A stretch of 64,000 nt of DNA, taken from positions 32,001 to 96,000 of IMG/VR virus record IMGVR_UViG_3300005326_000040; one strand, 5' to 3'. The stretch's first letter is position 1, and the number at the start of each line of letters is the position of its first letter. The translations under genes were made by a program, and so were the position numbers. This stretch comes from a virus (taxonomy: Duplodnaviria > Caudoviricetes). This document shows positions 11,684 through 56,457 of the stretch, in pieces. The notes under the pieces were generated by a model. It saw nothing but the letters and a program-made list of their open reading frames with translations, was not told the DNA's origin and searched no databases.

Positions 11684-11715
11684 AAAAAGCCCGGCCGGAA
11701 ACGGTTGGGCTTTTT
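11684..11715. terminator. Intrinsic terminator (bidirectional type)
   Basis: AAAAAGCCCGGCCG-GAAA-CGGTTGGGCTTTTT. Confidence 0.85.
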
Positions 11716-11757
11716 GCTTTCTAGGTTTAGAAGAATTGATATATAGTTGAACCAAGA

Positions 11758-20980: not shown

Positions 20981-21010
20981 AAAAACGCCACCCTAATAAG
21001 GTGGCGTTTT
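20981..21010. terminator. Bidirectional intrinsic terminator between convergent genes
   Basis: AAAAACGCCACC-CTAATAA-GGTGGCGTTTT. Confidence 0.9.
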
Positions 21011-21034
21011 CTTTTGTTTGTTTCTATGTTTGTC

Positions 21035-30983: not shown

Positions 30984-31004
30984 CATAATCTAAAGAAAAT
31001 AAAA

Positions 31005-31036
31005 GAAAACGGCTGGTAAAAAATACCAGCCGTTTC
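31005..31036. terminator. Bidirectional intrinsic terminator between convergent genes
   Basis: AAACGGCTGGTA-AAAAA-TACCAGCCGTTT. Confidence 0.88.
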
Positions 31037-37414: not shown

Positions 37415-37613
37415 CTGGTTAATTACTTGGGTTTACCACTGGTGCCCTCTGGTCAATTACTGGAGTTTGAAGATATTTATACCTGGAGTCGTCTGGTTAA
37501 TCACTGGAGTTTACTGCTAGTGCCTTCTGGTCAATTACTGGAGTTTGAAGATATTTATACCTGGAGTTTGGAGTTATTTATACCTGGAGTCGTCTGGTTA
37601 ATTACTGGAGTTT
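37415..37613. repeat. Iteron-like direct repeat cluster
   Basis: CTGGTYAATYACTKGRGTTT at 37415, 37449, 37493, 37527 and 37594, plus three ATTTATACCTGGAGT copies. Partly organised as a 78-bp tandem unit. Confidence 0.9.
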
Positions 37614-37813
37614 GCTGGTCTGTAATTTCTGGATATTATGGATTACAGTGACACTGTTACTTTTCGTAAAAACTTATGCTACAACGTTAAAAATTACCCC
37701 AAATATACATCAATAATAACAATGACTTACGAAGGTGTTAGTTTTTAGATGTTTTGATTTGGTTTAAAGTGGTGGAGAGTGGGGATAAATGGGTTGTGAT
37801 ATCCTTTTGACGT

Positions 37814-37853: not shown

Positions 37854-37916
37854 CCTAGTGTCACGTCACGCGCTGTGATGCCATCTAGTGTGATGCAACG
37901 TCGTATAGTGTAACGT

Positions 37917-38017
37917 AGCGCAGTGACCATATATTGCACTATATCGTCACTCGGTCTGCGGTGTCGTGTAGCGTAGCGTAGGCCAGCGCAGTGACCATAT
38001 ATTGCACTATATGGTCA
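37917..38017. promoter_or_regulatory. Two directly repeated palindromes (operator-like)
   Basis: TGACCATATA-TTGCAC-TATAT(C/G)GTCA at 37924 and 37992, 68 bp apart. Confidence 0.7.
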
Positions 38018-38068: not shown

Positions 38069-38353
38069 TAAAGTATAAGGTAATGGTTCGGGGGATAATC
38101 CCCTTCCGAAACCTTATGGTTCCCCGATGTTTCCCCTAACGTTATCCAGGGGTTACTAGTGGGTTCTCCGGGCGTTCTAGAGCGCTGGCAATAAACCAGT
38201 AAGGAACCGATCTGCCCCTAGTTAGGGGTTATTAGGGTTCCGAGAACAACCTAACGGCGCAAAGCCTGGGGAATCTAACGGTAACCTTTGGGCAATCAAA
38301 GGGAAACCAAAAGCCTGACCCAGCAGGATAACTGGGATTCCACGGAGTTTACA

Positions 38354-39055
38354 ATGTCGTTCGCCAAGTCGTTCGCCGCTCGCGTTCTCTCCGCTGCTTC
38401 CGCTCAGCAGACCGCTCCGGCTCCGCAGGTTGCTCCGGTTGCCCAGGCCGCTCCGGCAATTCCGGGAACCGCTGCTCCGGTCATCCCTGGAATGGCGCCT
38501 TCGGTTCCGGTGGCGCCCCAGGCCACCGTCACGCTGGAAGCCATCAGGGCGGTCGTTGCGTCGGCTTACCCGACGCTCAACGCCGGACAGCACGACGCCA
38601 TCACCACCAACATCGCTCGGCTGACCGGGTTGCCGGTCACCGGGGCTCCGCCGAAGAACCTCGGCGGCTACGCCGCCGCAGCGGCGTTCGTCCTCAAGTC
38701 CATCCCTGGCGGGCTGGAGTTGCTCCAGGCCCAGGAGAAGAAGGGGTTGGGAAAGCGCGTGACCGACTTCCACACGGGCGTCACCGTCTGGAAGCAGGCT
38801 GATGTGCTTCGCCACGATGCTGAGACTGGGCTGGTCGTGCAGGGAAAGGAAGGGAACGCCTATCGGTCGGTGACCTTCACCGATGGCAGGGACAAGTCTG
38901 GGCAAACGCTGCGCAAGGCTCTCGTGAGTGCCCTGGCTCCCAAGGGAGCCGTCGAGACGTTGTTGGCGGCTCTGTGCCTCGCCCGGTCGTTTGGCATCAC
39001 CGATGAGATGATCCAGGAACTCGTCACCCGCAGCGCCGCCATCATGTCCAAGTAG
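38354..39055 (+). CDS. Hypothetical protein, first rightward gene (A/P-rich N-terminal linker)
   Basis: GGAG RBS then MSFAKSF. High-GC codon usage. Confidence 0.8.
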   Translation: MSFAKSFAARVLSAASAQQTAPAPQVAPVAQAAPAIPGTAAPVIPGMAPSVPVAPQATVTLEAIRAVVASAYPTLNAGQHDAITTNIARLTGLPVTGAPPKNLGGYAAAAAFVLKSIPGGLELLQAQEKKGLGKRVTDFHTGVTVWKQADVLRHDAETGLVVQGKEGNAYRSVTFTDGRDKSGQTLRKALVSALAPKGAVETLLAALCLARSFGITDEMIQELVTRSAAIMSK

Positions 39056-39080
39056 TTCCCTTCTACGTACCCACCTATTC

Positions 39081-39136
39081 GCCCCTGGTACTGACCCTCA
39101 AAGGGTTGGTGCCAGGGGCACCCTTTTACCCGTTAA
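39081..39136 (+). repeat. Intergenic hairpin repeat H0
   Basis: GCCCCTGGTACTGACCCT-CAA-AGGGTTGGTGCCAGGGGC, followed by ...GTTAA. Confidence 0.75.
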
Positions 39137-39255
39137 AGCCCCTGTAGTTCAAGGGGTTTTAACCACTACCCCTGCGGGGGATTGGAGGGACGACTCAAGG
39201 TGAGTCATGCTCCCTCATTGGGATTCAATAGGGTGTAAACCCGCAGGAGATTACC

Positions 39256-39903
39256 ATGAATAGTTCGATTACCCGCAAGGCTTTCATCGCGATGCTCAAT
39301 ACGTTCGTTCGTCAGATGGAAGGCGTCATTGACGCCTGGAACGCCATTGAACGGATGAACCATATCTGCGCCGACGTTGAGGCGCAGATCTTCAGCAACA
39401 ATAGTGACCGCTACCACGACGGTAGCGTGACCACAACTGATTACAACATCCTTCTGCGAGGGCAGAAGGTGGGGTACGTTCGGGTGCGGGAAACTCACGA
39501 ATATCGGGAGGAAAGGGAGGTCTTTGTCTCCTTCACCGAGCTTTCCCCTCGCGAATGGCGGGAGCGGAAGGCTTCACAGCGGGCTGCGGCCCGCCGTCAT
39601 CAGGAGGCGTACGACGCCTCCCGTGAAGTCGTCGCTGCCGCCCTGGCGGCGGGGCAGTCCGTCCGTGTCCAAGATGGACAGAAAGGGGGGGTTTTCGTGA
39701 TTGGCGACCACAGGGTCGCCGCTGTGCGGCTTCTCACCTCGGCGTATTTCGGTTTCTCTGAGGAAGAGGCGAATCGTCGCCTCGGGGAGGCTTGGTACAA
39801 GGGTAGTGACAGTTGGGGGGGATTCACATTCACCCTCAACCCCGAGTTGGCACATCGCCAGTTCGGTCGTCCTACCAGCATCGAATGGGAGATGACGGCC
39901 TGA
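39256..39903 (+). CDS. Hypothetical protein
   Basis: 215 aa, AGGAG RBS. Confidence 0.8.
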   Translation: MNSSITRKAFIAMLNTFVRQMEGVIDAWNAIERMNHICADVEAQIFSNNSDRYHDGSVTTTDYNILLRGQKVGYVRVRETHEYREEREVFVSFTELSPREWRERKASQRAAARRHQEAYDASREVVAAALAAGQSVRVQDGQKGGVFVIGDHRVAAVRLLTSAYFGFSEEEANRRLGEAWYKGSDSWGGFTFTLNPELAHRQFGRPTSIEWEMTA

Positions 39904-39919
39904 GGGCCTCTTTCCCAGT

Positions 39920-39980
39920 CGCCGATGTTTGCCCCTTTCTCAGCCTTCGGCTGGGGGAGGGGCGTTCTTTCGGCGGTTAA
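39920..39980 (+). repeat. Intergenic hairpin repeat H1
   Basis: CGCCGA-TGTTT-GCCCC-stem/loop-GGGGC-GTTCT-TTCGGCG-GTTAA, with G.U pairs in the upper stem. Confidence 0.92.
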
Positions 39981-40097
39981 AAGCAACCGCCTCTGAGGGG
40001 CGGTATACAAGTACCCTGACGTGAACGAAGGCTTTCCCTACCTTTGGTGAATACCCTATGGGGTAAAGGGGAGACGGTAACATTATCCCACCGACAA

Positions 40098-40173
40098 GCG
40101 GATATGTAGCACAATGTGGAACCTAATGAGTTATTGGCATTAGGGATGGGTTCGATTCCCATATGTGCTGCCG
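40098..40173 (+). ncRNA. Degenerate tRNA-like element
   Basis: T arm ATGGG-TTCGATT-CCCAT, 7-bp stem CCTAATG/CATTAGG with a 9-nt loop, imperfect acceptor stem and D arm. Confidence 0.55.
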
Positions 40174-40257
40174 AGTGAAGATAATTCTTTCATTCGATTG
40201 TGGAGCATTCACAAGTAACAGGGTGTGAGTGGATTGAATCTCCAATCCAACTCTAAC

Positions 40258-40363
40258 TGGGTTTAGCTCAAGGGTAGAGCAACTTATGTTTCAAGGTCCT
40301 TCCTAACCAGCGGGACACCGAAACATAGGGATATATCGAGTTCAAGTCTCGATAGCCCAGCCA
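40258..40363 (+). ncRNA. tRNA-like RNA with greatly extended anticodon arm
   Basis: D arm GCTC-AAGGGTA-GAGC, 10-bp stem CTTATGTTTC/GAAACATAGG enclosing a GTCC/GGAC hairpin, T arm ATCGAG-TTCAAGT-CTCGAT, 3' AGCCCA-G-CCA. Confidence 0.75.
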
Positions 40364-40479
40364 AGTTAGTTGTCCTTTTCCTCTTCGGGGGATTAGCCCA
40401 TAGGGACGTGGGCACACCAGCCGTTATGTGGACGGTTGGAATGATTGTTGGGGTAATCCCCGTTGAAGGAGAATGAATC

Positions 40480-40755
40480 ATGGCACGTCGTAATGCTGCT
40501 CGTCGGGCTCGCAATTCAAAGAGGTCTGCCCTCGTGACTGCCGCTATTCAGATGGCTTGCAATGCGGGCTCCGGGCTTCAACTCTTCGTCGGAGCCTCCG
40601 TCGAGGAGTGTGAGCATGATTACGCGAAGAGCCTCGGTGCGGAAGCTGCAAGGCTCCGCTCGGGGCTCTTGGGATACGGGCTCAATATGGCGGCATTCCG
40701 CCATGAACCGCCCGTCGTTCAAGACTACGTGAGGAACTACATCCTCCTCGCATAG
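40480..40755 (+). CDS. Hypothetical protein
   Basis: 91 aa, AAGGAG RBS, stop directly before H2. Confidence 0.75.
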   Translation: MARRNAARRARNSKRSALVTAAIQMACNAGSGLQLFVGASVEECEHDYAKSLGAEAARLRSGLLGYGLNMAAFRHEPPVVQDYVRNYILLA

Positions 40756-40760
40756 TTTTG

Positions 40761-40823
40761 CCGCCGACGTTTGCCCCTGTATCGGCCTTCGGGCCGGTAT
40801 GGGGGCGTTCTTTCGGCGGTTAA
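40761..40823 (+). repeat. Intergenic hairpin repeat H2
   Basis: Consensus arms with a cUUCGg tetraloop. Confidence 0.92.
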
Positions 40824-40867
40824 CAAGCTCCAGTGGGGTAACCAGTCCCCCATGAAAGGATATTACC

Positions 40868-41086
40868 ATGTACAAGTCCAATTCATTCGGCTCTCTCGGC
40901 GCGTCCCTTGGCGTGGCGAAGGTGCGGGAGCTTTCCCGCGCACTTCATGTCGCCGACTCCCGCCGTGAGGCGGCGAATGTGCAGAAGCTCATCGAGGCGA
41001 AAGCCTCTGAGATGCGTCGTTCGCTGAAGAATCCCGAGAGCTATGCTCTCGTGATCAATGCCCTCAAGAAGGAGGGCAAGCTGTAG
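40868..41086 (+). CDS. Hypothetical protein
   Basis: 72 aa, AAAGGA RBS. Confidence 0.75.
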   Translation: MYKSNSFGSLGASLGVAKVRELSRALHVADSRREAANVQKLIEAKASEMRRSLKNPESYALVINALKKEGKL

Positions 41087-41095
41087 AGCGGGATT

Positions 41096-41158
41096 CCGCC
41101 GATGTTTGCCCCTGCTTTGGCCTTCGGGCCATTGTGGGGGCGTTCTTTCGGCGGTTAA
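41096..41158 (+). repeat. Intergenic hairpin repeat H3
   Basis: Consensus arms, UUCG loop, abuts the AGGAGG RBS. Confidence 0.92.
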
Positions 41159-41170
41159 AGGAGGCGCAAT

Positions 41171-41458
41171 ATGAGTGCGCTCGAACGCAAGAAGGCCGCG
41201 AAGCTGGAAGCGCGGCGAAAGAAGTGTATTCTCTACGAGACAGCCAAGAAGGTTGTCTATAGCGCTGGCACTAAACAGGTGTCAGCAATGGTAAGCCGTC
41301 CGATGGCTTGCCCTCACTCGGACTTCACATACGACTTGTGGGAAGTCGTTGTTTTCAACAGCGACAATTCCACCTGTCGTGCCAGTTGCTATCTTCCAAA
41401 GGAGGAGGCTCTTGCTCTTGCTCGTAATTGGGCAATTGAGTTTGGAGCCATTCTTTGA
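41171..41458 (+). CDS. Hypothetical protein
   Basis: 95 aa. Confidence 0.75.
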   Translation: MSALERKKAAKLEARRKKCILYETAKKVVYSAGTKQVSAMVSRPMACPHSDFTYDLWEVVVFNSDNSTCRASCYLPKEEALALARNWAIEFGAIL

Positions 41459-41461
41459 TAC

Positions 41462-41524
41462 CCGCCGATGTTCGCCCCTTTCTCAGCCATTCTGGCTGGG
41501 GGAGGGGCCTTCTATCGGCGGTTA
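41462..41524 (+). repeat. Intergenic hairpin repeat H4
   Basis: Consensus arms. Upper stem nearly identical to H1. Confidence 0.92.
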
Positions 41525-41528
41525 AGAA

Positions 41529-41666
41529 TGCCAGATATCGTCCCCACTTCCTTTTCCCGCAAGGATTAGGGGGTCAAGTTGAAGAAGGACAAACCGGGAT
41601 GAACAATCCTGGAGGGACGGAGAGCTTTCGAGTTCTCAGGTGGTTCAATTCCATCATCTGGCACCA
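41529..41666 (+). ncRNA. Expanded tRNA-like RNA (138 nt)
   Basis: Acceptor GCCAGAT/ATCTGGC-A-CCA, T arm GGTGG-TTCAATT-CCATC, variable-arm hairpin GAGAGCT-TTCG-AGTTCTC, GTCCC/GGGAC long-range stem. Confidence 0.75.
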
Positions 41667-41762
41667 AAGCAAGTGTGTATCTTTAGGAGTTTGGGATTGT
41701 TTTTGCTCCGGAGTTCGGGAGCAAAGCATAATCATTCTCCTAAAGAACACAAAGGAGGAGAG

Positions 41763-41999
41763 ATGCTGACGAAAACGAATGCAAGAAGGTTGGTGGAGAT
41801 TGTTGCGCAGATAAAAGACTTGTCTGCCAAGAACGGCATGATCGATCAACGCCACGAAGATGTGGCGAAGATTCTGGGGACGTATAAGGAGGATGAATAT
41901 CCTTCTGAAGAAGACCCCGAGTGGCGCAAGAACAACGACGAGATTGGCAATCTCTACAACGAGCTTCTGTCCATCATCAACACAAGTCTCCCCCTGTAG
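41763..41999 (+). CDS. Hypothetical protein
   Basis: 78 aa, AGGAGG RBS. Confidence 0.75.
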   Translation: MLTKTNARRLVEIVAQIKDLSAKNGMIDQRHEDVAKILGTYKEDEYPSEEDPEWRKNNDEIGNLYNELLSIINTSLPL

Positions 42000-42005
42000 A
42001 GACTT

Positions 42006-42067
42006 CCGCCGATTACCCGCCCCTTTTCAGCCTTCGGGCTGAGGAGGGGCGCCCTTTCGGCGGTTAA
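42006..42067 (+). repeat. Intergenic hairpin repeat H5
   Basis: Consensus arms, UUCG loop. Confidence 0.92.
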
Positions 42068-42109
42068 AAGCTACACCCTATCCCAAGTATGTTCTCGTTC
42101 TCTCCATTA

Positions 42110-42118
42110 TGGTATGGT
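42110..42118 (+). promoter_or_regulatory. Second extended -10 promoter-like element
   Basis: TGnTATGGT followed by a leader similar to the one at 38060. Confidence 0.45.
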
Positions 42119-42343
42119 TTTCAGTAGGGGGTAAAACATAAACCCCTTCTGGAAACTCTACCTCAACAATTCCCGATGTTTCTTTGTGTAGGGTTGTTGC
42201 CTACACGAGAGATAAAAGGATAGTTGATAGTATGACCCCCACCAAAGGGTCATTTATTAATGGGTAGAGGGTGAGAACAAACCTGGAGTGGAATTATCGA
42301 ATCGCCTGATAGGCGGCCTGGGGGCGGAACAACAACTCGGAGA

Positions 42344-42886
42344 ATGATCATGAAGACGACTTCCAAGATGAACGCGCTTCTGAATGCGGCCTGTGACCAT
42401 GCGAAGGCGCGTGGTCGTTTCCCCATGTACTTGGACCCGGTTAGGTTCGAGTTTGACGGGGACAGTGACTGTTACTTCGCCGCAAGAGCGAGGGACTTCA
42501 CGTTCTCCAAAGGGGCCGCAGCGATCATTGGTGCCGACATGATCGTCACCATGTTCGCGGGGGAGGAGCAGTGGGGAATGTTCTTCTCTACTCGTGAGTT
42601 GCTTGACCCCGAAACGCTCAAGTGGCTCAAGGATTCCGACCACTTGTTGGAAGACGAGTGGAAAGCAGCGGAGTCCTTGGCGAAGAAGGCCGAGCAACTC
42701 GCCTCTCAGGCGCGAGTTTCGGCCTTGAAGGCTCGTGAAGCGAGCCTCAGTGCCAACGACTTCCAGGTGGTCATGGTGGAGATTGAGCGAAAGCCCATCT
42801 TCGCCGCGCTGCCTGAGACAGTGGAAGTTCATCCCGTCTTCAGTCAGATCAACCGAGAGGTTGATTTCGATTGCAACTGGGATTGA
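42344..42886 (+). CDS. Hypothetical protein
   Basis: 180 aa, GGAG RBS. Confidence 0.8.
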   Translation: MIMKTTSKMNALLNAACDHAKARGRFPMYLDPVRFEFDGDSDCYFAARARDFTFSKGAAAIIGADMIVTMFAGEEQWGMFFSTRELLDPETLKWLKDSDHLLEDEWKAAESLAKKAEQLASQARVSALKAREASLSANDFQVVMVEIERKPIFAALPETVEVHPVFSQINREVDFDCNWD

Positions 42887-42896
42887 ACCTGTTTCT

Positions 42897-42961
42897 CCGC
42901 CGATTGTTTGCCCCTGCTTTCGCCTTTCGAGGCGATTGAGGGGCATTCTTTCGGCGGTTAA
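42897..42961 (+). repeat. Intergenic hairpin repeat H6
   Basis: Consensus arms, UUCG loop. Confidence 0.92.
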
Positions 42962-42983
42962 CAAGCAACCACTGGAGGCTGCT

Positions 42984-43232
42984 ATGAAGAAGCTGTGGTT
43001 TTGGGTGCATAGTGCGCCCACGGGGTTCGTCAAGGATGCTGATCGTCATGTTGTTGTGATGGCGATTGCTACCGAGGACGAGATTTATGGCCCTGGTATC
43101 GGTCTCGACAACTGGCACGAGACTGGTATCGAGGGCACTCTTGATGGTTGCCTCGCGACCCTCAAGAAGAATCATCCATGCGTCAACATGGAGACAATCC
43201 TCGGCGGCTGTTTGGGTTACGCCGTCGAATAA
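42984..43232 (+). CDS. Hypothetical protein
   Basis: 82 aa, GGAGG RBS. Confidence 0.75.
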   Translation: MKKLWFWVHSAPTGFVKDADRHVVVMAIATEDEIYGPGIGLDNWHETGIEGTLDGCLATLKKNHPCVNMETILGGCLGYAVE

Positions 43233-43540
43233 TAGTGGCTGATAAGTTGCTATCAAGAAAGGGCAGGAACGTATAGGAGTAACAATCCTAGTTCGAGTCT
43301 CCCCATAGGAAAGATAGGGCAAAGCCCACGTTGGACAATCTTTCCGCAGGTTTAGGCGAGCCAACCTATGGATGACTATAAACGGTTATAAGGCTCAGGG
43401 TCCAATGTTACTAGGTTAGGAAGGAGACCCAATGTAACGATAGCGGGTCTGGAGACAACTGAATAGCCCACCCTTCGGCAAGGTGGGCAATCTTAAGGGT
43501 ATGACTATTATGGTTGTATCCTTAAGATTGCCCAATTAGC
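43233..43540 (+). ncRNA. Candidate ~300-nt multi-stem ncRNA
   Basis: ORF-free on the + strand. Stems CCATAGG/CCTATGG, GGAAAGAT/ATCTTTCC, AGTAACA/TGTTACT, AGACCC/GGGTCT, and a 22-bp terminal hairpin. Confidence 0.55.
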
Positions 43541-43568
43541 CCCAACATATACCTGAGAGGAAAGAGTC

Positions 43569-43925
43569 ATGATCAAGGTGTGTTTCAACGAAGTGCCTGC
43601 CAATGTGGCGCAGTTCGTGGCGAAGAACATCCAGTCGGCGCAAATCGTGCGAGCGGCACGACCGGCGCCGATTGCGGCAGGAATGAAGCATTCGCCCAAT
43701 GTCATTGGAGGACGCCGTTACGGCAAGTACTCCAGGGGCGATAAGAACCGTAACCTCCGTAAGTCGGTGACGACCTATGGAGGACACACCTTCAAAGAGT
43801 TGATGGTGTTGATGGGCAACTCCGTGCCGATCAGCCAACTTCTCGCCATGAAGGAGACGAGGGAGTATTACGTCGGTGTTCGTCACGAATCGTGGAAGAA
43901 GTTCCGCGACCATCAGTGGAGGTAG
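43569..43925 (+). CDS. Hypothetical basic protein
   Basis: 118 aa, GAGG RBS. Confidence 0.75.
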   Translation: MIKVCFNEVPANVAQFVAKNIQSAQIVRAARPAPIAAGMKHSPNVIGGRRYGKYSRGDKNRNLRKSVTTYGGHTFKELMVLMGNSVPISQLLAMKETREYYVGVRHESWKKFRDHQWR

Positions 43926-43929
43926 TTCG

Positions 43930-44106
43930 ATGGAAAGGTATCAGTGGGAAGCCTTGGCGGAGACGTTGTTGATGCTCTCTCGTGCTCAGACCATGAGCGG
44001 TTTGAATTACGAACGGGTTCGACAGTTCGTCCGTGGAGAGAGGCCGCTGTCGCGGCGAATTCGCCGGTCGATCAACATCCTCTCCAGAACCGTATTCGAT
44101 AAGTAG
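43930..44106 (+). CDS. Hypothetical protein (possible small DNA-binding)
   Basis: 58 aa, Arg-rich, stop directly before H7. Confidence 0.6.
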   Translation: MERYQWEALAETLLMLSRAQTMSGLNYERVRQFVRGERPLSRRIRRSINILSRTVFDK

Positions 44107-44167
44107 TTCTGTTCGCCCCTGCTTTGGCCCTTCGGGGCCATTGTGGGGGCGATTCATTGGCAGTTAA
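44107..44167 (+). repeat. Intergenic hairpin repeat H7
   Basis: Upper stem nearly identical to H3. Lower stem diverged, TTAA retained. Confidence 0.85.
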
Positions 44168-44178
44168 GGAGAGGTCCA

Positions 44179-44346
44179 ATGGAGAAGCTTCTTCAAGTGA
44201 TGAGGTCGAGGAAGTGCTCCTATACGGAGTACATTGAATTGAGGCTCGCCGTATTGGCCGACATCGGCAAGGGCGGCGACGAACTGGTAGCAAAAATCTT
44301 TCGGGGGTTGGGGATTCCGATTCCTGTGGACCCTCGTTACAACTAG
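44179..44346 (+). CDS. Hypothetical protein
   Basis: 55 aa, AGGAG RBS. Confidence 0.65.
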   Translation: MEKLLQVMRSRKCSYTEYIELRLAVLADIGKGGDELVAKIFRGLGIPIPVDPRYN

Positions 44347-44378
44347 GGTTCCTTCTCGCCGAAAGAAAGGAACACGTC

Positions 44379-44678
44379 ATGCTCTTTGAAGTGCGACCGC
44401 CGAATTCAATGAAGAACGTCATGGTGACGTTTGAATCGAGTACTCGGCGGGAAACAGCTGCCGCAAATGCTGCTGTTGAATCAGTTCTCAAAGATGAGGA
44501 CTTGCAGCCTTTTCATCAGATGGGCTGTGACCCTTTCTACGGGAACGACGCTCCCGGCATTCATGGTTGGGAAATCTGGGTTGACGGGGAGAACATTGCG
44601 CGGGTGGCGGCGCTTCTTCCAAAGATCCAGACCATCTACGAGAAGGAGTATATCCTTCGGGACTGGATGGAGGATTGA
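44379..44678 (+). CDS. Hypothetical protein
   Basis: 99 aa, AAAGGA RBS. Confidence 0.7.
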   Translation: MLFEVRPPNSMKNVMVTFESSTRRETAAANAAVESVLKDEDLQPFHQMGCDPFYGNDAPGIHGWEIWVDGENIARVAALLPKIQTIYEKEYILRDWMED

Positions 44679-44681
44679 ATT

Positions 44682-44710
44682 GGCAGGTTCGATTCCTATC
44701 CGTTCGGCCA
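44682..44710 (+). other. Isolated tRNA 3' half
   Basis: GCAGG-TTCGATT-CCTAT-CCGTTCG-G-CCA directly after a stop codon and before an RBS. No matching 5' half seen. Confidence 0.65.
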
Positions 44711-44726
44711 AGGAAGGAGATGAATC

Positions 44727-45038
44727 ATGAAGGTTCGTATGATGATTCTGGTTGATGGACAGTATCGTTGGGTCGATAGCAAATTCAAAAGCAGCTTGGA
44801 AGCTGCTCAGGAGGTGAGTATTCCCTATATCGCTGGTGCATCTCGTGGTGAGGAGGGGTGCATCGAAGTCACTGGCAACAAGGTGACTTTCGTCGGCTAT
44901 CCCGTCAACGTTCTTATCAGTGAGGATGAGAACCCGATCACCATGGTCATGTCTGTGAGGGAGCAGAACATGGTCAAGGAGTCGTATCCTTGCACGCCCG
45001 AAGAAGTCAACGAGATGAGGGCCGCCAACAAGGAATAA
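44727..45038 (+). CDS. Hypothetical protein, paralog of 54215-54526
   Basis: Shared WVDS and GEEGCIEV motifs. Confidence 0.8.
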   Translation: MKVRMMILVDGQYRWVDSKFKSSLEAAQEVSIPYIAGASRGEEGCIEVTGNKVTFVGYPVNVLISEDENPITMVMSVREQNMVKESYPCTPEEVNEMRAANKE

Positions 45039-45042
45039 CCGT

Positions 45043-45204
45043 ATGGAGCAATACGTTCACGACTTCGGCATCATCTGGCAAGTGATGTGTAAGACCTACA
45101 TTGCCCACATTCTTTTTGTGTGGGTGATGGTGGTGTTCACAGTTGAGAAGTGGCAGGAGTATCAGGAGGCCAGGGTGATGGTTCTCCGAAAGCTCCATAA
45201 GTAA
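45043..45204 (+). CDS. Small membrane protein
   Basis: 53-aa ORF read by eye (MEQYVHDFGIIWQ...), one hydrophobic segment. Confidence 0.5.
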   Translation: MEQYVHDFGIIWQVMCKTYIAHILFVWVMVVFTVEKWQEYQEARVMVLRKLHK

Positions 45205-45217
45205 GGGAGAAGAGAGA

Positions 45218-45520
45218 ATGAAGAAGGTTGTGTTCGCATTCATCCTCGCCGCTATCGTTAGTGGTTGTGCCAAACCGGAGCCGAAGGTTCCTGTTGTTTC
45301 CCAGCAGCCCCAAGTGGCGCGGGTCATCTATACCGAGAAGGATTCTCCTCTCGACTATACAATCCGCGCCGAACAGGCTGTGATCGAAGGGGGTAGGACG
45401 GCGAAGCAGGCTGCCAGTCAGGCATATGATTGGGCAGCAAAGGAAGCGGAGGAGTTGGCCGACAAGGCGCGACGCGCCAAGAAGGCGGCCAAGGAAAAGA
45501 TTCACGAGATGACGGAGTGA
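45218..45520 (+). CDS. Lipoprotein
   Basis: MKKVVFAFILAAIVSGC lipobox. Confidence 0.8.
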   Translation: MKKVVFAFILAAIVSGCAKPEPKVPVVSQQPQVARVIYTEKDSPLDYTIRAEQAVIEGGRTAKQAASQAYDWAAKEAEELADKARRAKKAAKEKIHEMTE

Positions 45521-45536
45521 CGTAGTGACGTAGTGG

Positions 45537-45597
45537 ATGGTGTTCGCCCGTTATTCGGCTATAGAGCCGGGTGACGGGCGATGCTGTTTTCTTTTAA
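45537..45597 (+). repeat. Intergenic hairpin repeat H8 (subfamily B)
   Basis: About 23-bp stem with an ATAG loop and many G.U pairs. 61/62 nt identical to H10. Confidence 0.9.
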
Positions 45598-45624
45598 CGA
45601 GAGCCTTTCCCAAGGAGAAGTAAG

Positions 45625-45801
45625 ATGAGCAAGAACGAACTGATCGCGTTGGGGCTGGAAGCGCATGAAGTCGATTACATCGCCGAAGCGGTCGCCAAGA
45701 ATGGCGAAGTACTCGGCGACATCGTGCATGTGGACTTCTGCGTCAGCCCCAGGAGCGTTGGCGTGGAAACGGTGAATGAGGCGTACGACCTGGGACTGTG
45801 A
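45625..45801 (+). CDS. Hypothetical protein
   Basis: 58-aa ORF read by eye (MSKNELIALG...), AAGGAG RBS. Confidence 0.7.
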   Translation: MSKNELIALGLEAHEVDYIAEAVAKNGEVLGDIVHVDFCVSPRSVGVETVNEAYDLGL

Positions 45802-46067
45802 GGTTCGTCATGGGGTTAAATGAAGTCATCAATGGGCTGAAGCAGGGCAAGTCCTTCGAAAGGGCAGGGACGAGCACTGGTGGTGGGAAATATGTGGAAA
45901 AACTGATTGCTGTGAGTGCAATCTACTTCAAGCATCAGATCGTTGGCGCCATGAGTGGTCATGGTTGGGGAGGGTCGAGCCAGTTGGAGATCAATATCCT
46001 CAACAACGGTCGCTGGGACGAAGATGGATGGAAGGAGATTGCACCAGCCAGAGGTGAACAGTCATAA
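45798..46067 (+). CDS. Hypothetical protein
   Basis: 89 aa. Confidence 0.65.
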   Translation: MRFVMGLNEVINGLKQGKSFERAGTSTGGGKYVEKLIAVSAIYFKHQIVGAMSGHGWGGSSQLEINILNNGRWDEDGWKEIAPARGEQS

Positions 46068-46379
46068 GTGGAGCAAACGATGACAACGATTATCGTTAAC
46101 ATATCGGATGACCTTTCCCTTGCAGATCGTGCCTACACGGTGGACGATTTGCAATTCTTGCTGAGTGATGCCTTGCGGTCTCACGGGATTGGCTGTCACC
46201 TTACGGTGCTCCCAACCGAGACAGACGAGCAACGGATCATTCAGATCATCCAAGAAAGCAAAAGTGTTTTGCACGCCATCAAAAGCGTACGAAGCACTTT
46301 TGGGTTTGATCTGCTCACCTCCAAGAGAATCGTGGAAGACCTTATCGCCAAAGGTACAACTGTGGGCGGGAAGTTGTAG
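46068..46379 (+). CDS. Hypothetical protein with L7/L12 C-terminal-like motif
   Basis: AIKSVRSTFGFDLLTSKRIVE resembles the phage L7/L12-CTD-like pattern (AIKxxRxxTGxxLxEAKxxVE). Confidence 0.55.
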   Translation: MEQTMTTIIVNISDDLSLADRAYTVDDLQFLLSDALRSHGIGCHLTVLPTETDEQRIIQIIQESKSVLHAIKSVRSTFGFDLLTSKRIVEDLIAKGTTVGGKL

Positions 46380-46391
46380 AGGGAGGACACC

Positions 46392-46784
46392 ATGCCAGCA
46401 GTGAGTCGTAAAGAAATCGATCATGAGCGTGAAGTTGACGCTCAACTCAAAACGGACCTTTGTAACCTTGCATGGTACGGGTCCGACAATCCTGAGGTTG
46501 TCAAACGAGCGGAGGCCAAGGAACGTGAGTGGAGCGAGAAGCACTATCGCTCTTTCATGGACGACCAGTTGGAGAGTCTTCGTTGTACTCTGCACAAAGA
46601 GATGATGGAAGACTTGTTGGATGACGATTTGGAAGCCTGTCAAGACAGGAGGGCAACTTCCAGGGACATCAGCGATGACCCTTACGACGCTCTGGACTTC
46701 CACGAGCCTTCGCCGTATGTCGAACAGGAGCCGGACTACGAGTCGGCGGCCGAAGAGTTCGCAGATTACGACGAGTACGATTGA
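46392..46784 (+). CDS. Acidic hypothetical protein
   Basis: 130 aa, GGAGG RBS. Confidence 0.75.
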   Translation: MPAVSRKEIDHEREVDAQLKTDLCNLAWYGSDNPEVVKRAEAKEREWSEKHYRSFMDDQLESLRCTLHKEMMEDLLDDDLEACQDRRATSRDISDDPYDALDFHEPSPYVEQEPDYESAAEEFADYDEYD

Positions 46785-46795
46785 AGGGAGGAGAT

Positions 46796-47233
46796 ATGAT
46801 TCACATCTATACAAGCACTGTGGTTCCTCTCGCCACGGTGGAGAATCACGTCGGCTATATGGCTGACCTTAATCTGCTTGAAGACTACAGGTTGGTTCAT
46901 CTCGATCACACTGCTCCGCACAACTTTCAGGCGGAAGAAGCGGAGAAGGTGATTGAGAAGCACAAGGCCAAGCCGCGCTTCATCTACGCGGTTGCTTGTG
47001 TGATGGAACCGGCGATTCTCCGGATTCTTCGGAGGGTCAGGGAGGGCAAGCTTTCCCACGAAGATGTCAAGGTTTTCGTTCTCTCATACGACGCCAACGA
47101 AAAGGAGGAAGTTTGCGAGTGTCGAGTGGATGGCGATGGGGACTTCATTGACTCCTGGCCTGATGGGTTTTTCGAGGCATGTTCCAAAGAGTTGTTTGCG
47201 GAAGGGGATACTGATGGCACCACGAACGCCTGA
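46796..47233 (+). CDS. Hypothetical protein
   Basis: About 145 aa, GGAGG RBS. VDGDGDFIDSWPDGFFE resembles DUF3696-like tails. Confidence 0.7.
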   Translation: MIHIYTSTVVPLATVENHVGYMADLNLLEDYRLVHLDHTAPHNFQAEEAEKVIEKHKAKPRFIYAVACVMEPAILRILRRVREGKLSHEDVKVFVLSYDANEKEEVCECRVDGDGDFIDSWPDGFFEACSKELFAEGDTDGTTNA

Positions 47234-47855
47234 GAGCAATCGTAGGCCGCCGACGATTAGTGACAAGCAGTTGGTCAATCGTCGCATCCGAGTGGTCTAT
47301 CGGCGCCGCAGCATTGACTCCTATCACAACATCATCTATCACGATGATATCGAATGTGAGGGGGTTCTTCGGCTCAATCCTTCGGGATATGGGTTGACGG
47401 TGTTGACGGATGACGGTCGGTCGGTTGGGTACTTCCGCGCCGACTGTCCACTCCAACGCGACGAACCGATGCCCAGTGATTTCTCCCACATGAAGGGATA
47501 CGATGGGCACGCTGATTTGAGCTATGAGTTGACGCCGGTATCCGACGAAGTGATTCCGGTGGCGACACCGGAGAACGTCGGGGAACCGGCGAAGTCTCCG
47601 GTGATGTATTACCGAAGTGAGGCTCAAGGCGTTCTCAGGAACGACCTGAACAACACAGTCGTTGGTACGATGGAATCGTATCGAGTATGGGTCGTCACCC
47701 AGAATCAGTGGCTGGAGGTCACTGAAACAATTATGAAGATGTTGTATGGGTCGGAGAGTAATCTTCGGCGCTGGCATCCTCAGGGTGAAAAGGTTTCAAC
47801 GTTCTACGATCACTTCGAAAGGAACTTCCCTGGGGTATCCCTGGGACTTGCGTGA
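47214..47855 (+). CDS. Hypothetical protein
   Basis: About 213 aa, stop just before H9. Confidence 0.7.
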   Translation: MAPRTPESNRRPPTISDKQLVNRRIRVVYRRRSIDSYHNIIYHDDIECEGVLRLNPSGYGLTVLTDDGRSVGYFRADCPLQRDEPMPSDFSHMKGYDGHADLSYELTPVSDEVIPVATPENVGEPAKSPVMYYRSEAQGVLRNDLNNTVVGTMESYRVWVVTQNQWLEVTETIMKMLYGSESNLRRWHPQGEKVSTFYDHFERNFPGVSLGLA

Positions 47856-47863
47856 GGGGTTGG

Positions 47864-47914
47864 TCGCCCGGTATCGTTCTTGGAACGGTATCGGGCGATG
47901 CTGTTTTTATTTAA
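47864..47914 (+). repeat. Intergenic hairpin repeat H9 (subfamily B)
   Basis: TCGCCCGGTATCGTTC-TTG-GAACGGTATCGGGCGA then TGCTGTTTTTATTTAA. Confidence 0.85.
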
Positions 47915-47933
47915 CGATACCAGGAGGATTACC

Positions 47934-48200
47934 ATGTGCATGTCGATTGACGACAAGGTTCCCTTCAAGTGGACGCCGCACGAGCAGGCTTCCCACGTTA
48001 TCATTGGATACTGTGCCAAGTGTGGAAGTGGCGGTATCATGATGACGGCGAAGAACGAACTGGAAGCCTACAGGATGAGGAAGTGGTATCGAGCCCACGG
48101 TTATCCGAAGGCTCGAATCGAACTGGACAATGAGGAGACCTCCAAGCAGGTTTCGGATGAGTTGACGGACCTCATCTGTTGGGAAGACTCTCACGTCTGA
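47934..48200 (+). CDS. Hypothetical protein
   Basis: 88 aa, AGGAGG RBS. Confidence 0.7.
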   Translation: MCMSIDDKVPFKWTPHEQASHVIIGYCAKCGSGGIMMTAKNELEAYRMRKWYRAHGYPKARIELDNEETSKQVSDELTDLICWEDSHV

Positions 48201-48245
48201 GTCGGGATAACGCCGCAAAGAAATCCTTTTCAAAGGGAGAGAGTT

Positions 48246-48779
48246 ATGAACCAGAGCAACATGATTGCCATGGCTACGAGCCCTTCATCGTTCGACATGT
48301 TCAAGTTGACGGAGATTCTCGTCAACTGCGGAGGGACGATCTTCGGTGGGTTCGTGAGGGACATGGTGGCTGGGCAGTTGGACTTCGTGAGCGACATCGA
48401 CGTGAGTATGCGTCAGGAGTTCAAGCTCCAGTATCTCATGGCAAGGCTTATCAAAGAATACCAGCAAGTGCTGGTGTCGGCCTTGCCTGTGAAGAATTAC
48501 GGGAGAGGGAACCCCGACGGGTTCCGGTTGACTGTGGACGGTATTGATGTTGATATCGTTTGCGAGGCCGATCGAGGAATCCTTGACCTCGACGTGAATG
48601 GGCTCCTGTGGGACAATAATGGGTTGAGGTTGGATATCAGCCGATATCGTGTCAACGGGGACACCTTCGTTCAGTTGGTTCAACGGATTCAGCAGAAGCA
48701 GTTCCGTCGAATCGACGTTCCGCTGTGGCGGGAGAGGAAGGTGGCGAAGCTGAAGTCGATGGGGTGGACGGAAGTGTGA
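48246..48779 (+). CDS. Minimal nucleotidyltransferase (CCA-adding/poly(A) polymerase head-like)
   Basis: IFGGFVRD...SDIDV signature, third acidic strand IDVDIV, DLDVNGL (DFxINAL-like). No body or tail domain. Confidence 0.75.
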   Translation: MNQSNMIAMATSPSSFDMFKLTEILVNCGGTIFGGFVRDMVAGQLDFVSDIDVSMRQEFKLQYLMARLIKEYQQVLVSALPVKNYGRGNPDGFRLTVDGIDVDIVCEADRGILDLDVNGLLWDNNGLRLDISRYRVNGDTFVQLVQRIQQKQFRRIDVPLWRERKVAKLKSMGWTEV

Positions 48780-48787
48780 GGGTAGGG

Positions 48788-48848
48788 ATGGTGTTCGCCC
48801 GTTATTCGGCTATAGAGCCGAGTGACGGGCGATGCTGTTTTCTTTTAA
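48788..48848 (+). repeat. Intergenic hairpin repeat H10 (subfamily B)
   Basis: Copy of H8 with one U.G to U-A compatible change. Confidence 0.9.
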
Positions 48849-48876
48849 TGAGGGCGTCATTGAAAGGACAAGAAGA

Positions 48877-49476
48877 ATGATCAAGACAATCAACAGCAAC
48901 ATCGTCAAGTGCTTCGACAGCTTCTGCGTTGGGACCAAGATCAAGAATGTCGAAGCGTTCTTGAGGCTGTTGGAAGCAGCCATCGAGAGTTTCGATTGGT
49001 CGTCCTGTAAGGCACCAGGGCAAGCCAAGATTCCGATGTCCACCGAAGCGTGTCAGCACGTTTACTCGGGGATTGGTTTGAAGACAGAGAACCCCAACGA
49101 TTACGTGATTCGTCAGTGGCGTGGTTCGGTAGCGATGTATCTCAAGAGGGAGCACGCCATTGCTTGTGATTCAGTGAAGGTCATTGTGTATACGAAGCAG
49201 GCGTATCTCGATGACCCGGATTGCAAGGGGAATCCTGAGAAGGGAATTATCGGGGACGAAGAGGAATACAATCGGGTAAGTCAGTCCGATTGTACACACG
49301 TTCTGATAGCGGTTCAGGCGGACGCTGGTCCGGAGAGTCCAGTTGCACCGGGGCGGTTCGTAGCGAACCTAGCCGGTGCGAACAATGAGTACGAGGCCAA
49401 AACCGCCGAGCAGCTTCAACAATTGGCGAGAGAGATTCGCGACTACTATGCGACGTATATGGTGGTTGCGGACTGA
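48877..49476 (+). CDS. Hypothetical protein
   Basis: 199 aa, AAAGGA RBS. Confidence 0.8.
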   Translation: MIKTINSNIVKCFDSFCVGTKIKNVEAFLRLLEAAIESFDWSSCKAPGQAKIPMSTEACQHVYSGIGLKTENPNDYVIRQWRGSVAMYLKREHAIACDSVKVIVYTKQAYLDDPDCKGNPEKGIIGDEEEYNRVSQSDCTHVLIAVQADAGPESPVAPGRFVANLAGANNEYEAKTAEQLQQLAREIRDYYATYMVVAD

Positions 49477-55932: not shown

Positions 55933-56006
55933 TGGCAAGTAGCTCAATTGGATAGAGCGTCAGCGTTCGCTGAAGGTTATAGGTTCAAATCCTATCTTGC
56001 CTACTA
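55933..56006 (+). ncRNA. Anticodon-less tRNA-like RNA (GTTC tetraloop)
   Basis: GGCAAG/CTTGCC acceptor, TA, GCTC-AATTGGATA-GAGC, TCAGC-GTTC-GCTGA, AGGTT, ATAGG-TTCAAAT-CCTAT, A-CTA. Confidence 0.9.
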
Positions 56007-56387: not shown

Positions 56388-56457
56388 AGATAAGTAGCTC
56401 AATGGTAGAGCGCCAGCATTCGCTGGGGTGCAGGTTCGAGCCCTGCCTTATCTTCTA
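56388..56457 (+). ncRNA. Anticodon-less tRNA-like RNA (ATTC tetraloop)
   Basis: AGATAAG/CTTATCT acceptor, TA, GCTC-AATGGTA-GAGC, CCAGC-ATTC-GCTGG, GGT, GCAGG-TTCGAGC-CCTGC, T-CTA. Confidence 0.9.

Follow-up and report, generated by a model that had tools for sequence, protein, structure and literature searches.

Phages T7 and SP82 carry RNase III sites in hairpins between the genes of their early mRNA, and several SP82 sites are similar to each other in sequence. When T7 and SP82 substrates have an internal loop, they receive one cut, on the downstream side (PMC1935012). In T7, a protective 3′ hairpin is left behind (PMC1935012), while in SP82 the downstream strand is cut by a narrow-specificity RNase III (PMC1935012, PMC4838370), as the B. 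subtilis enzyme with its SP82 early-mRNA targets is known to be (PMC4838370). The E. coli enzyme covers ~24 positions of a helix (PMC6212723).

We describe here 11 related intergenic RNA hairpins in a GC-rich block of small genes of a 338-kb groundwater phage, all within the 64,000-nt stretch of DNA that was analysed (the window). The features are as follows.

Punctuated array, 38354..49476, + strand: 24 small genes with Shine-Dalgarno sites.
H1, 39081..39136, + strand, 44.6 bits: 18-bp upper stem (39081-39119) with CAA loop, without lower stem; TTAA 39133-39136; after the g1 stop codon (39055).
Possible truncated relative, 39139..39165, + strand, directly after H1: 6-bp mini hairpin, then UUUUAAC.
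H2, 39919..39980, + strand, 75.2 bits, subfamily A: lower stem 39919-39925 / 39970-39976, upper stem 39931-39963; TTAA 39977-39980; after the g2 stop codon (39903).
H3, 40761..40823, + strand, 80.2 bits, subfamily A: upper stem 40773-40806 with C(UUCG)G loop, lower stem CCGCCGA/TCGGCGG (P=0.99 in context); TTAA 40820-40823; after the g3 stop codon (40755).
H4, 41096..41158, + strand, 82.5 bits, subfamily A: upper stem 41108-41141 with UUCG loop and two U·U mismatches; TTAA 41155-41158, the g5 ribosome-binding site directly next and the g5 ATG 12 nt past TTAA.
H5, 41462..41525, + strand, 82.6 bits, subfamily A: 8-bp lower stem, upper stem 41474-41508; TTAA 41522-41525, with a tRNA-like RNA beginning 3 nt downstream.
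H6, 42006..42067, + strand, 58.9 bits, subfamily A: upper stem 42019-42050 with UUCG loop; internal loop UUACC / CCCUU beyond an extra C-G closing pair; TTAA 42064-42067.
H7, 42897..42961, + strand, 74.1 bits, subfamily A: upper stem 42910-42944 with inner bulge and U(UUCG)A loop; TTAA 42958-42961; g8 ATG 22 nt downstream.
H8, 44107..44167, + strand, 58.4 bits, intermediate form: H4-like upper stem 44115-44150 with UUCG loop; lower stem degenerate, its 5′ strand lost; 3′ flank subfamily-B-like; TTAA 44164-44167, the g11 ATG 11 nt after it.
H9, 45535..45597, + strand, 65.2 bits, subfamily B: upper stem 45546-45579 (17 bp including an extension), 9-bp G·U-rich lower stem, then UCUUUUAA; TTAA 45594-45597; closes the g11-g15 block.
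H10, 47862..47914, + strand, 47.1 bits, subfamily B: upper stem 47866-47896; TTAA 47911-47914; closes the g16-g21 block.
H11, 48786..48848, + strand, 62 bits, subfamily B: upper stem 48797-48830; TTAA 48845-48848; closes the g22-g23 block; 96% identity to H9 over 70 nt.

The covariance model R1 has exactly 11 matches, whether the window or the complete 338,055-bp virus record is searched, and these are the very loci that an earlier, sequence-only reading had picked out. All lie on the + strand inside 9.8 kb and score 44.6–82.6 bits, as compared with ≤17 bits for the same loci on the reverse strand. With folding energies of −30 to −47 kcal/mol (z-scores −5.2 to −7.9 versus shuffles), they lie near the top of the stability range for 70-nt segments of this genome. 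The mini hairpin behind H1 lies outside the R1 matches; it uses the stem-base sequence of the family (2 matches versus 0.03 expected). An Rfam search with the hairpins gave no match, no RNA run was found to contain the sequence, and no relatives of the family were found anywhere searched outside this genome.

The array genes have a GC3 of 0.55–0.79 in a genome of 40% GC, and all 24 are orphans except a small nucleotidyltransferase and a lipoprotein. Judging by gene size and position, the block is presumably early. Every hairpin is intergenic and starts 2–25 nt past a stop codon, in agreement with the earlier estimate of at most ~25 nt. The layout thus described is like that of the T7 early signals (R0.3, R0.5, R1, R1.1, R1.3), which are also ~60-nt hairpins between small genes of a polycistronic, in T7 host-transcribed, unit, located immediately past stop codons and ahead of the next ribosome-binding site, and in which an internal loop likewise separates an upper from a lower stem. 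Unlike the T7 signals, with which they share no sequence similarity, the present hairpins have a longer upper stem (14–18 bp), a shorter lower stem (7 bp), an internal loop that is pyrimidine-rich on both sides, and an invariant UUAA 14–15 nt from the stem. The SP82 sites, compared in layout, are likewise hairpins interrupted by an internal loop and located between the cistrons of early phage mRNA; here there are 11 copies in two subfamilies. In our analysis, the succession of lower stem, internal loop and long upper stem matches the described T7/SP82 RNase III sites (PMC1935012, PMC6212723), and 9 of the 11 copies, with 26–29 helix positions, reach the ~24 positions spanned by the E. coli enzyme.

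The upper stems differ in sequence between copies and keep their pairing. The counted positions comprise 132 Watson-Crick pairs, 27 G·U, 1 A·C and 9 other juxtapositions, and at variable positions a copy's own arms pair at 92%, versus 57–60% for arms taken from different copies, so that the variable yet paired, wobble-rich stems reported from the sequence are confirmed. The covariation score on the model-fitted alignment, which rests on 11 paralogous copies in ~7 stem lineages since no relatives were found, is 0.286 versus 0.175 in shuffles; it is reached by 0 of 500 shuffles and exceeds that of every slid register. The only stem difference between the copies at 45537 and 48788 is indeed a U·G to U-A change. 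The compensatory changes indicate that the hairpins are under selection for structure. They also bear on the idea that the copies are functionless duplicates, spread by gene duplication or by a small selfish element. This idea draws on the restriction of the family to 9.8 kb of a single genome and on the near identity of H9 and H11, flanks included. Nevertheless, stems that have diverged at many positions and are still paired require selection, all copies lie between genes, point the same way and come close behind a stop codon, and the genes between the hairpins are not mutual paralogues, one distant pair excepted. We therefore regard functionless duplication as extremely improbable.

The fold also has a strand. 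Folded from the other strand, the upper stems are 2–10 kcal/mol weaker. UUCG loops occur in five copies (40761, 41096, 42006, 42897 and 44107), precisely those named before, and are closed as C(UUCG)G in four and as U(UUCG)A in one; such tetraloops are unusually stable as RNA. The G·U to A·C asymmetry, these loops and an orientation that is always + behind stop codons indicate that the element acts single-stranded, in the transcribed sense, as had been proposed.

It could be asked whether the copies are instead single-stranded DNA sites for recombination or transposition (attC-, PeSL- or REP-like), each gene being a swappable cassette. A folded attC consists of a 7-bp lower stem, ~5 nt of unpaired spacer, an upper stem and a variable tip, and our hairpins resemble it superficially: they are strand-specific, imperfect, placed behind each small gene (one small orphan gene per element across the first half of the array), and their GTTAA resembles the integron core site GTTRRRY over its first five bases. 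H8, with a stem like H4 and flanks like subfamily B, looks mosaic. However, GTTAA is unpaired and outside the lower stem, its RYYYAAC partner is absent so that no paired box exists, 9 of the 11 upper stems are without extrahelical bases, and neither a tyrosine recombinase (integrase) nor a Y1 transposase was found in the 97%-complete genome. It is furthermore the mRNA-sense strand that folds best, with RNA-type UUCG loops and many G·T juxtapositions if read as DNA. The PeSL cassettes of T4-like phages are also repeated, conserved stem-loops flanking single orphan genes in a plastic region, and PeSL-like repeats could favour recombinational shuffling; a PeSL, though, joins a short stem-loop to a near-consensus sigma-70 promoter (PMC2839356, PMC4122927). 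The present stems are far longer, and the copies are not PeSLs since none is adjoined by a sigma-70-type promoter. The uniformly high GC3 of all units is unlike that of independently acquired cassettes. Alternative joints at the elements were absent from the sole DNA run, which as contigs only is weak evidence. Recombination sites are thus very unlikely.

A different question is whether the transcript ends at the hairpins. No promoter-like site was detected beside any of the 11 copies in a consensus scan, and the next start codon lies only 11–28 nt past TTAA for H4, H7, H8, H9, H10 and H11, so that these six must be inside a read-through transcript; the whole block is probably one transcript. 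They might still be leaky intrinsic terminators or attenuators, in which the stem and the U/C-rich stretch halt a fraction of polymerases per unit, creating an expression gradient, and the hairpin protects the ended RNA from 3′ exonucleases with no need for an endonuclease. Like intrinsic (Rho-independent) terminators and the T4 CUUCGG hairpins, which are unusually stable intercistronic structures, the copies lie between genes and combine a GC-rich stem, frequently capped by a UUCG loop, with a U-rich run that follows the stem in most of them (UUCUUUCG in four members of subfamily A; UCUUUUAA behind the complete G·U-rich helix of all three subfamily B copies). H2, H3, H9, H10 and H11 are terminator-like in a consensus scan, and each subfamily B copy closes a block of several tightly packed genes. 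Subfamily B, and to a lesser degree subfamily A, thus resembles weak intrinsic terminators. One study gives 132 terminators for phage 201phi2-1 (PMC11512511), and giant-phage transcriptomes show intergenic terminators in large numbers.

The U tracts are nevertheless weak, with 3–5 U of 8 and 0–2 U in the first 3: next to the stem, the first three bases are ACC in H1 and CCC in H6, both without U, and include one U in subfamily B. The ~15 canonical terminators of this genome have 8–14-bp stems and, by the scan criterion, at least 6 U of 8. Efficient termination would silence the six closely spaced downstream genes, which have no room for a promoter of their own. In subfamily A the U tract lies inside the conserved lower stem, and termination explains neither this invariant stem, transcribed after the U stretch, nor the fixed TTAA. 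Leaky termination is therefore possible but doubtful.

In the reading that we prefer, and to which we assign a probability of roughly 40%, the 11 hairpins are cis-acting signals for endonucleolytic processing and 3′ protection, of the T7/SP82 type and cut by host RNase III; both the cleavage and the enzyme are what we infer. As the polymerase passes, the GC-rich upper stem (−22 to −35 kcal/mol) would fold. In subfamily A the 7-bp lower stem would then close over the internal loop, and host RNase III would make a single cut on the 3′ side of the interrupted helix of 26–29 positions, at or near the loop, while in subfamily B a nearly continuous 26–27-bp G·U-rich duplex would be cut on both strands. 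A hairpin cap would then shield each upstream message from 3′ exonucleases, and every unit downstream would be released along with its ribosome-binding site. No gene for a phage-encoded RNase III was found in the genome. A sequence-conserved hairpin family fits a narrow-specificity RNase III, given the B. subtilis precedent (PMC4838370). Of the processing signal first proposed, the position in a read-through transcript and the T7/SP82-like architecture stand, while UUAA is left unexplained and subfamily B is terminator-like.

The lower part of the element is less variable than its stem. TTAA follows the upper stem in all 11 copies, as noticed earlier, at exactly 14 nt in eight and 15 nt in three, even in copies lacking the lower stem. 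Subfamily A had been given eight members; six share the invariant 7-bp lower stem and pyrimidine-rich internal loop, whereas the lower stem is absent from the copy at 39081 and degenerate in that at 44107. Among the six, the 22-nt 3′ block from GGGGC to TTAA is 93% identical, versus 40–48% for the middle of the stem, although some of the flank conservation might stem from gene conversion among the copies, H9 and H11 being 96% identical. There are no compensatory changes in the lower stem, which suggests that its sequence, beyond its shape, is read. To judge from the sequence, this invariant part points to specific recognition and lends support to the protein recognition suggested before.

Several features of this part speak against RNase III. 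A proper lower stem is missing from H1 and H8, and that of H2 is outcompeted (predicted P of only 0.03 in its ±100-nt context). The conservation of the 3′ block and the fixed TTAA exceed the known needs of a structure-reading enzyme, and the conserved pyrimidine-rich stretch right behind a strong GC stem would be expected of an attenuator. For the invariant UUAA at its fixed distance, RNase III gives no account.

The same conservation could mark the site of a dedicated, sequence-specific RNA-binding protein, either a phage endoribonuclease measuring from the stem base and cutting at UUAA, or a regulator reading the lower stem and internal loop, Nus/boxA-like antitermination loading included. 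There is a loose resemblance to the boxB–boxA order of rrn leaders, in that the hairpin precedes a U-rich ...UUAAC(A/G)A; the boxA likeness is weak, since C follows TTAA in only 4 of the 11 copies, and antitermination sites normally occur once per operon. Moreover, no candidate protein was found, the 24 block genes being orphans with the two exceptions named, and gene conversion may account for part of the flank conservation. A dedicated protein is accordingly judged unlikely.

Taken together, the hairpin signal is genuine, though of a type already familiar. Most likely, by our analysis, the hairpins mark the points at which a long read-through transcript of this phage would be cut and its pieces protected, with RNase III as the candidate enzyme.

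When R1, the covariance model built from the eleven hairpins, was run on the window with filters off and then on the whole genome, exactly 11 matches were returned in both cases, all on the + strand with scores of 44.6–82.6 bits, and the reverse strand at the same loci reached no more than 17 bits. All 11 lie where the sequence-only reading had placed them. The family, a small hairpin beside it and the gene array it punctuates are located as follows:

39081–48848, + strand: eleven RNA hairpins, H1–H11 in order along the window (H2–H7, subfamily A; H9–H11, subfamily B; H1, without the lower stem; H8, intermediate)
39139–39165, directly 3′ of H1: mini hairpin, GCCCCU-8 nt-AGGGGU followed by UUUUAAC
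38354–49476, + strand: 24 small genes of the hairpin-punctuated array

The folding energy per copy is −30 to −47 kcal/mol (z-scores −5.2 to −7.9), which places the hairpins among the most stable of the 70-nt windows genome-wide. With the conserved GCCC/GGGC base setting the register, the variable GC-rich upper stems comprise 14–18 bp (132 Watson–Crick pairs, 27 G.U, 1 A.C and 9 other juxtapositions in all) and by themselves contribute −22 to −35 kcal/mol. The earlier proposal that these stems vary in sequence yet stay paired holds up well, with 92% pairing at variable positions for a copy's own arms versus 57–60% for arms taken from different copies. Both sides have changed in 11 of 22 pairs of the model-fitted alignment, and the covariation score of 0.286 exceeds all of 500 shuffles (mean 0.175) as well as every slid register. 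The proposed specificity of the fold for the transcribed strand is likewise confirmed by the excess of G.U over A.C juxtapositions (27 against 1; P ~1e-7 under equal odds, 0.003 when the G-/T-rich composition of the arms is allowed for) and by upper stems that are 2–10 kcal/mol weaker on the opposite strand. The five UUCG loops are also present, as C(UUCG)G in four copies and U(UUCG)A in one. Taken together, the model matches, folding energies, covariation, G.U asymmetry and loops show that the hairpin structure is real and under selection, on the strand of mRNA sense.

All of this comparative evidence comes from 11 paralogous copies (about seven stem lineages), since no relatives of the element or of its neighbouring proteins were found. 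The 10-kb region gave no megablast match among phage records, and the subfamily A motif gave none in IMG/VR; a 16-mer of subfamily B gave 21 single matches, judged to be chance without model scoring. Motif scans returned five chance matches in JGI metagenomes, none of the five scoring with R1, and four in GTDB genomes, all of high GC. Four proteins of the record, searched against IMG/VR and large protein libraries, retrieved nothing beyond their own records apart from a single short match, which was weak. A search of Rfam 15 families, self-cleaving ribozymes included, gave only chance-level microRNA matches over the copies (E 1–4).

All copies have in common the GCCC/GGGC base of the stem, with YGUUY-like bases on its 5′ side and a pyrimidine-rich stretch on its 3′ side. 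As had been noticed from the sequence, every copy ends in TTAA, and the distance from the upper stem to this motif is exactly 14 nt in eight copies and 15 nt in the other three. In H2–H7, an invariant lower stem, CCGCCGA/UCGGCGG, encloses an internal loop that is typically UGUUU opposite GUUCUU; this stem has P = 0.90–1.00 in context in five of the six copies and is outcompeted in H2. The lower part of the element is constrained in sequence and the upper part in pairing only, because identity among subfamily A copies is 93% in the 22-nt 3′ block versus 40–48% in the middle of the stem. The lower stem is absent in H1 and has lost its 5′ strand in H8, and in H9–H11 its place is taken by a 9-bp G.U-rich helix, followed by UCUUUUAA. 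H9 and H11 are 96% identical across 70 nt, flanks included, and it is between these two that the lone U.G to U-A stem change reported earlier is found.

Several sequences nearby resemble parts of the element. The mini hairpin at 39139–39165 resembles a truncated copy of the element, or else a small terminator. The leader of g1, the first gene (38122–38190), carries the family 9-mers CCGATGTTT and GGGCGTTCT in the right order without an R1 match, and may be a decayed copy upstream of that gene. In the g11–g12 spacer, CGCCGAAAGAA (44357–44367) is the perfect complement of UUCUUUCGGCG, conserved in subfamily A, and lies partly within the loop of a small hairpin and partly next to it; it may be a relic 5′ half or a pairing partner, or the complementarity may have arisen by chance (rough odds ~0.03).

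The layout of basal stem, unpaired spacer and variable tip recalls a folded attC site, but it is very unlikely that the family belongs to a DNA-level site class such as attC or PeSL. The basal stem, CCGCCGA/TCGGCGG, does not correspond to the attC R boxes RYYYAAC/GTTRRRY, the unpaired GTTAA on its 3′ side lacks a 5′ partner, and, unlike the attC L box, nine of the 11 upper stems (in register, no bulges) contain no extrahelical bases. A tyrosine recombinase is also lacking, PF00589 having no match across the 338-kb record although the controls gave signals in 14 of 14 genomes; attC arrays without an integrase do exist, and the absent recombinase is not decisive. It is the mRNA-sense strand that folds more stably, with RNA-type loops. 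Moreover, third-position GC (GC3) is uniform across the units (0.55–0.79 in all 24 array genes), and no alternative joints are seen among the DNA contigs available, which are interrupted only by assembly breaks at the H9/H11 repeat. Finally, no promoter accompanies any copy, which places the family outside the PeSL definition, a near-consensus early promoter fused to a stem-loop (PMC4122927).

Other identities were rejected as well. For a REP or IS200-IS605-type ssDNA hairpin, PF01797 (Y1, the HUH transposase or RAYT) was unmatched, and 11 of 11 copies lie on the + strand where both orientations would be expected. N4-type DNA-hairpin promoters form on the template strand, which here has A.C mismatches and folds 2–10 kcal/mol worse. 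A micro-ORF is not indicated, element lengths not being multiples of three and ATG...TAA being in frame only in H4, nor does the TAA of TTAA serve as a back-up stop, its frame relative to the upstream stop differing between copies by hand count. A likeness to boxA/nut was too weak to count.

Each hairpin starts 2–25 nt past a stop codon, in agreement with the ~25 nt first proposed. For H4, H7, H8, H9, H10 and H11, the distance from TTAA to the next start codon is 11–28 nt, and H1, H2, H3, H5 and H6 are followed by long non-coding stretches with tRNA-like or other structured RNA. No sigma-70-like promoter site adjoins any copy; on the + strand, promoter-like sites occur only at 40156, 43484, 48013 and 51732, and the region shows no enrichment of sigma-70-like sites (11 found, 15 expected). 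With the next starts so close and no such site adjoining the copies, expression of the downstream genes requires the polymerase to read through the hairpins, along a polycistronic transcript that we infer.

Between the hairpins lie tRNA-like stretches with canonical T arms (GGTTCGATTCC) at 40085–40365, 41529–41666 and 44680–44715, none called by ARAGORN or Rfam. Further tRNA matches with an odd anticodon arm are found at 55933–56004, for which ARAGORN gives a 2-nt 'anticodon', and 56388–56454. The proposed homology of two ~270-nt leader RNAs (gap-rich alignment, 66% column identity) was not convincing. Unrelated, very long + strand hairpins (22–28 bp, with G.U pairs), mostly without U tracts, occur at 43484–43534 and, outside the window, at 67019–67072 and 107410–107470 (genome 99019–99072 and 139410–139470); long dsRNA hairpins may be a general trait of the phage transcripts.

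Since the elements combine a GC-rich stem-loop of intrinsic-terminator type, at the upper-stem stabilities given, with a conserved pyrimidine-rich stretch past the stem, and five copies were flagged as terminator-like by a looser consensus scan, they might be leaky terminators or attenuators. We consider this unlikely. There is no uninterrupted U tract, only 3–5 U in eight bases and 0–2 U among the three bases nearest the stem (ACC in H1, CCC in H6), and in six copies the next gene, without a promoter of its own, begins so soon afterwards that efficient termination would silence it. Termination also leaves unexplained the fixed TTAA and the lower stem: the U stretch has already been transcribed by the time the 3′ strand of that stem is synthesised. 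Elsewhere in the genome, a scan requiring at least 6 U in eight found ~15 canonical terminators with stems of 8–14 bp, from which it is clear that the phage otherwise relies on terminators of the ordinary bacterial type. Examples, including one bidirectional terminator between convergent genes, are:

20982–21045 (20982/21010): canonical intrinsic terminator
11687–11730: canonical intrinsic terminator
31000–31036: canonical intrinsic terminator

Our preferred reading, held tentatively at a probability of roughly 0.4, is that the hairpins are RNase III-type processing and protection signals, a mechanism that we infer from their anatomy. Like the RNase III signals of T7 and SP82, they lie between cistrons with no promoter before the next gene, and they match the irregular helix of ~22–24 positions (about two turns), often with an internal loop, of those signals. 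The subfamily A helix comprises 7 + 5/6 + 15–16 positions and that of subfamily B 26–27 bp; the full span is 26–29 positions in nine of 11 copies, long enough for the ~24-position footprint of E. coli RNase III (PMC6212723). Two copies are too short, H1 with 18 bp and H8 with 16 bp above a degenerate stem base. When a T7 or SP82 substrate contains an internal loop, it receives a single cut on the downstream side (PMC1935012), and a cut of this kind would leave each upstream message capped by its hairpin. Sequence conservation across such a family would not be surprising for the enzyme, since B. subtilis RNase III is described as having narrow specificity, with targets in SP82 early mRNA (PMC4838370). 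Pfam models detected neither RNase III nor a beta subunit in the phage record, both controls being positive, and no T7-like RNA polymerase, for which the model also matched no control genome and is thus uninformative; host enzymes are assumed because none of the three is detectable in the phage.

The conservation of the lower module and the fixed-distance UUAA go beyond the needs of known RNase III sites. It is nevertheless improbable that the invariant module and UUAA serve a dedicated sequence-specific factor; encoded by phage or host, this factor would recognise the stem base together with the lower stem and the pyrimidine loop, and would cut or act at the UUAA exactly 14–15 nt away. Mitochondrial transcripts are punctuated by tRNAs, and we give similarly small weight to a phage-specific RNA punctuation in which such a factor would act on the hairpins and RNase P/Z would cut the tRNA-like RNAs among them, the two kinds of element jointly dicing a GC-rich, highly structured early transcript. 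The block also encodes a small nucleotidyltransferase (g23, 48246–48779; 177 aa, phrog_1614, E=6e-5), for which the newly formed 3′ ends are a conceivable substrate.

The source is a 338,055-bp linear IMG/VR virus record, estimated by CheckV to be 97% complete, and the one public run containing the hairpin region is a groundwater metagenome of DNA, not RNA. Overall GC is ~40%, jumping to 51–60% at window ~37800 and then declining slowly to ~45% in an island at 37800–64000 (genome 69800–~105000). The jump is not a misjoin at ~37800, because one Logan contig (37538–45569) spans it; foreign origin or selection for structured RNA are possible explanations of the island. The 24 array genes have Shine–Dalgarno sites and are almost all orphans (Pfam, PHROGs, large protein libraries); calling them 'early genes' is thus a reading of their layout and not a result. 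Atlas look-ups of g2 and g21 gave no lead, and g15 (45218–45520), a lipoprotein, has weak matches to Cor-type superinfection-exclusion and to Rz-like proteins. Upstream of the array is a divergent control-like region (37415–37617 and 37906–38017) with about three 78-nt direct repeats and two 44-nt repeats, each of the latter with a palindrome, TGACCATATA-TTGCAC-TATATGGTCA; this could be an operator, origin or promoter region. The large proteins of the window are mostly orphan too, such as the 2245-aa ORF at 14222–20959, which has no match in Pfam, PHROG or PDB and no RNA polymerase signature.

Thus, the family of intercistronic RNA hairpins is real and well supported. Hairpins of this kind have been described in T7, SP82 and T4; what is unusual here is the strict conservation of the lower module, the UUAA at a fixed distance and the tRNA-like RNA neighbours in a GC-rich island. 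Should the hairpins indeed serve processing and protection, a huge, almost all-orphan groundwater phage would share with T7 and SP82 the trick of turning one long transcript into separately stable messages. The compact 60-nt module, with its invariant base, free-to-vary stem and fixed UUAA, is a candidate portable insulator or stabiliser, and its conserved lower part and UUAA may point the way to a new factor that binds or cuts RNA sequence-specifically. In this genome, which homology leaves without annotation, the hairpin helps to delimit the units of expression.
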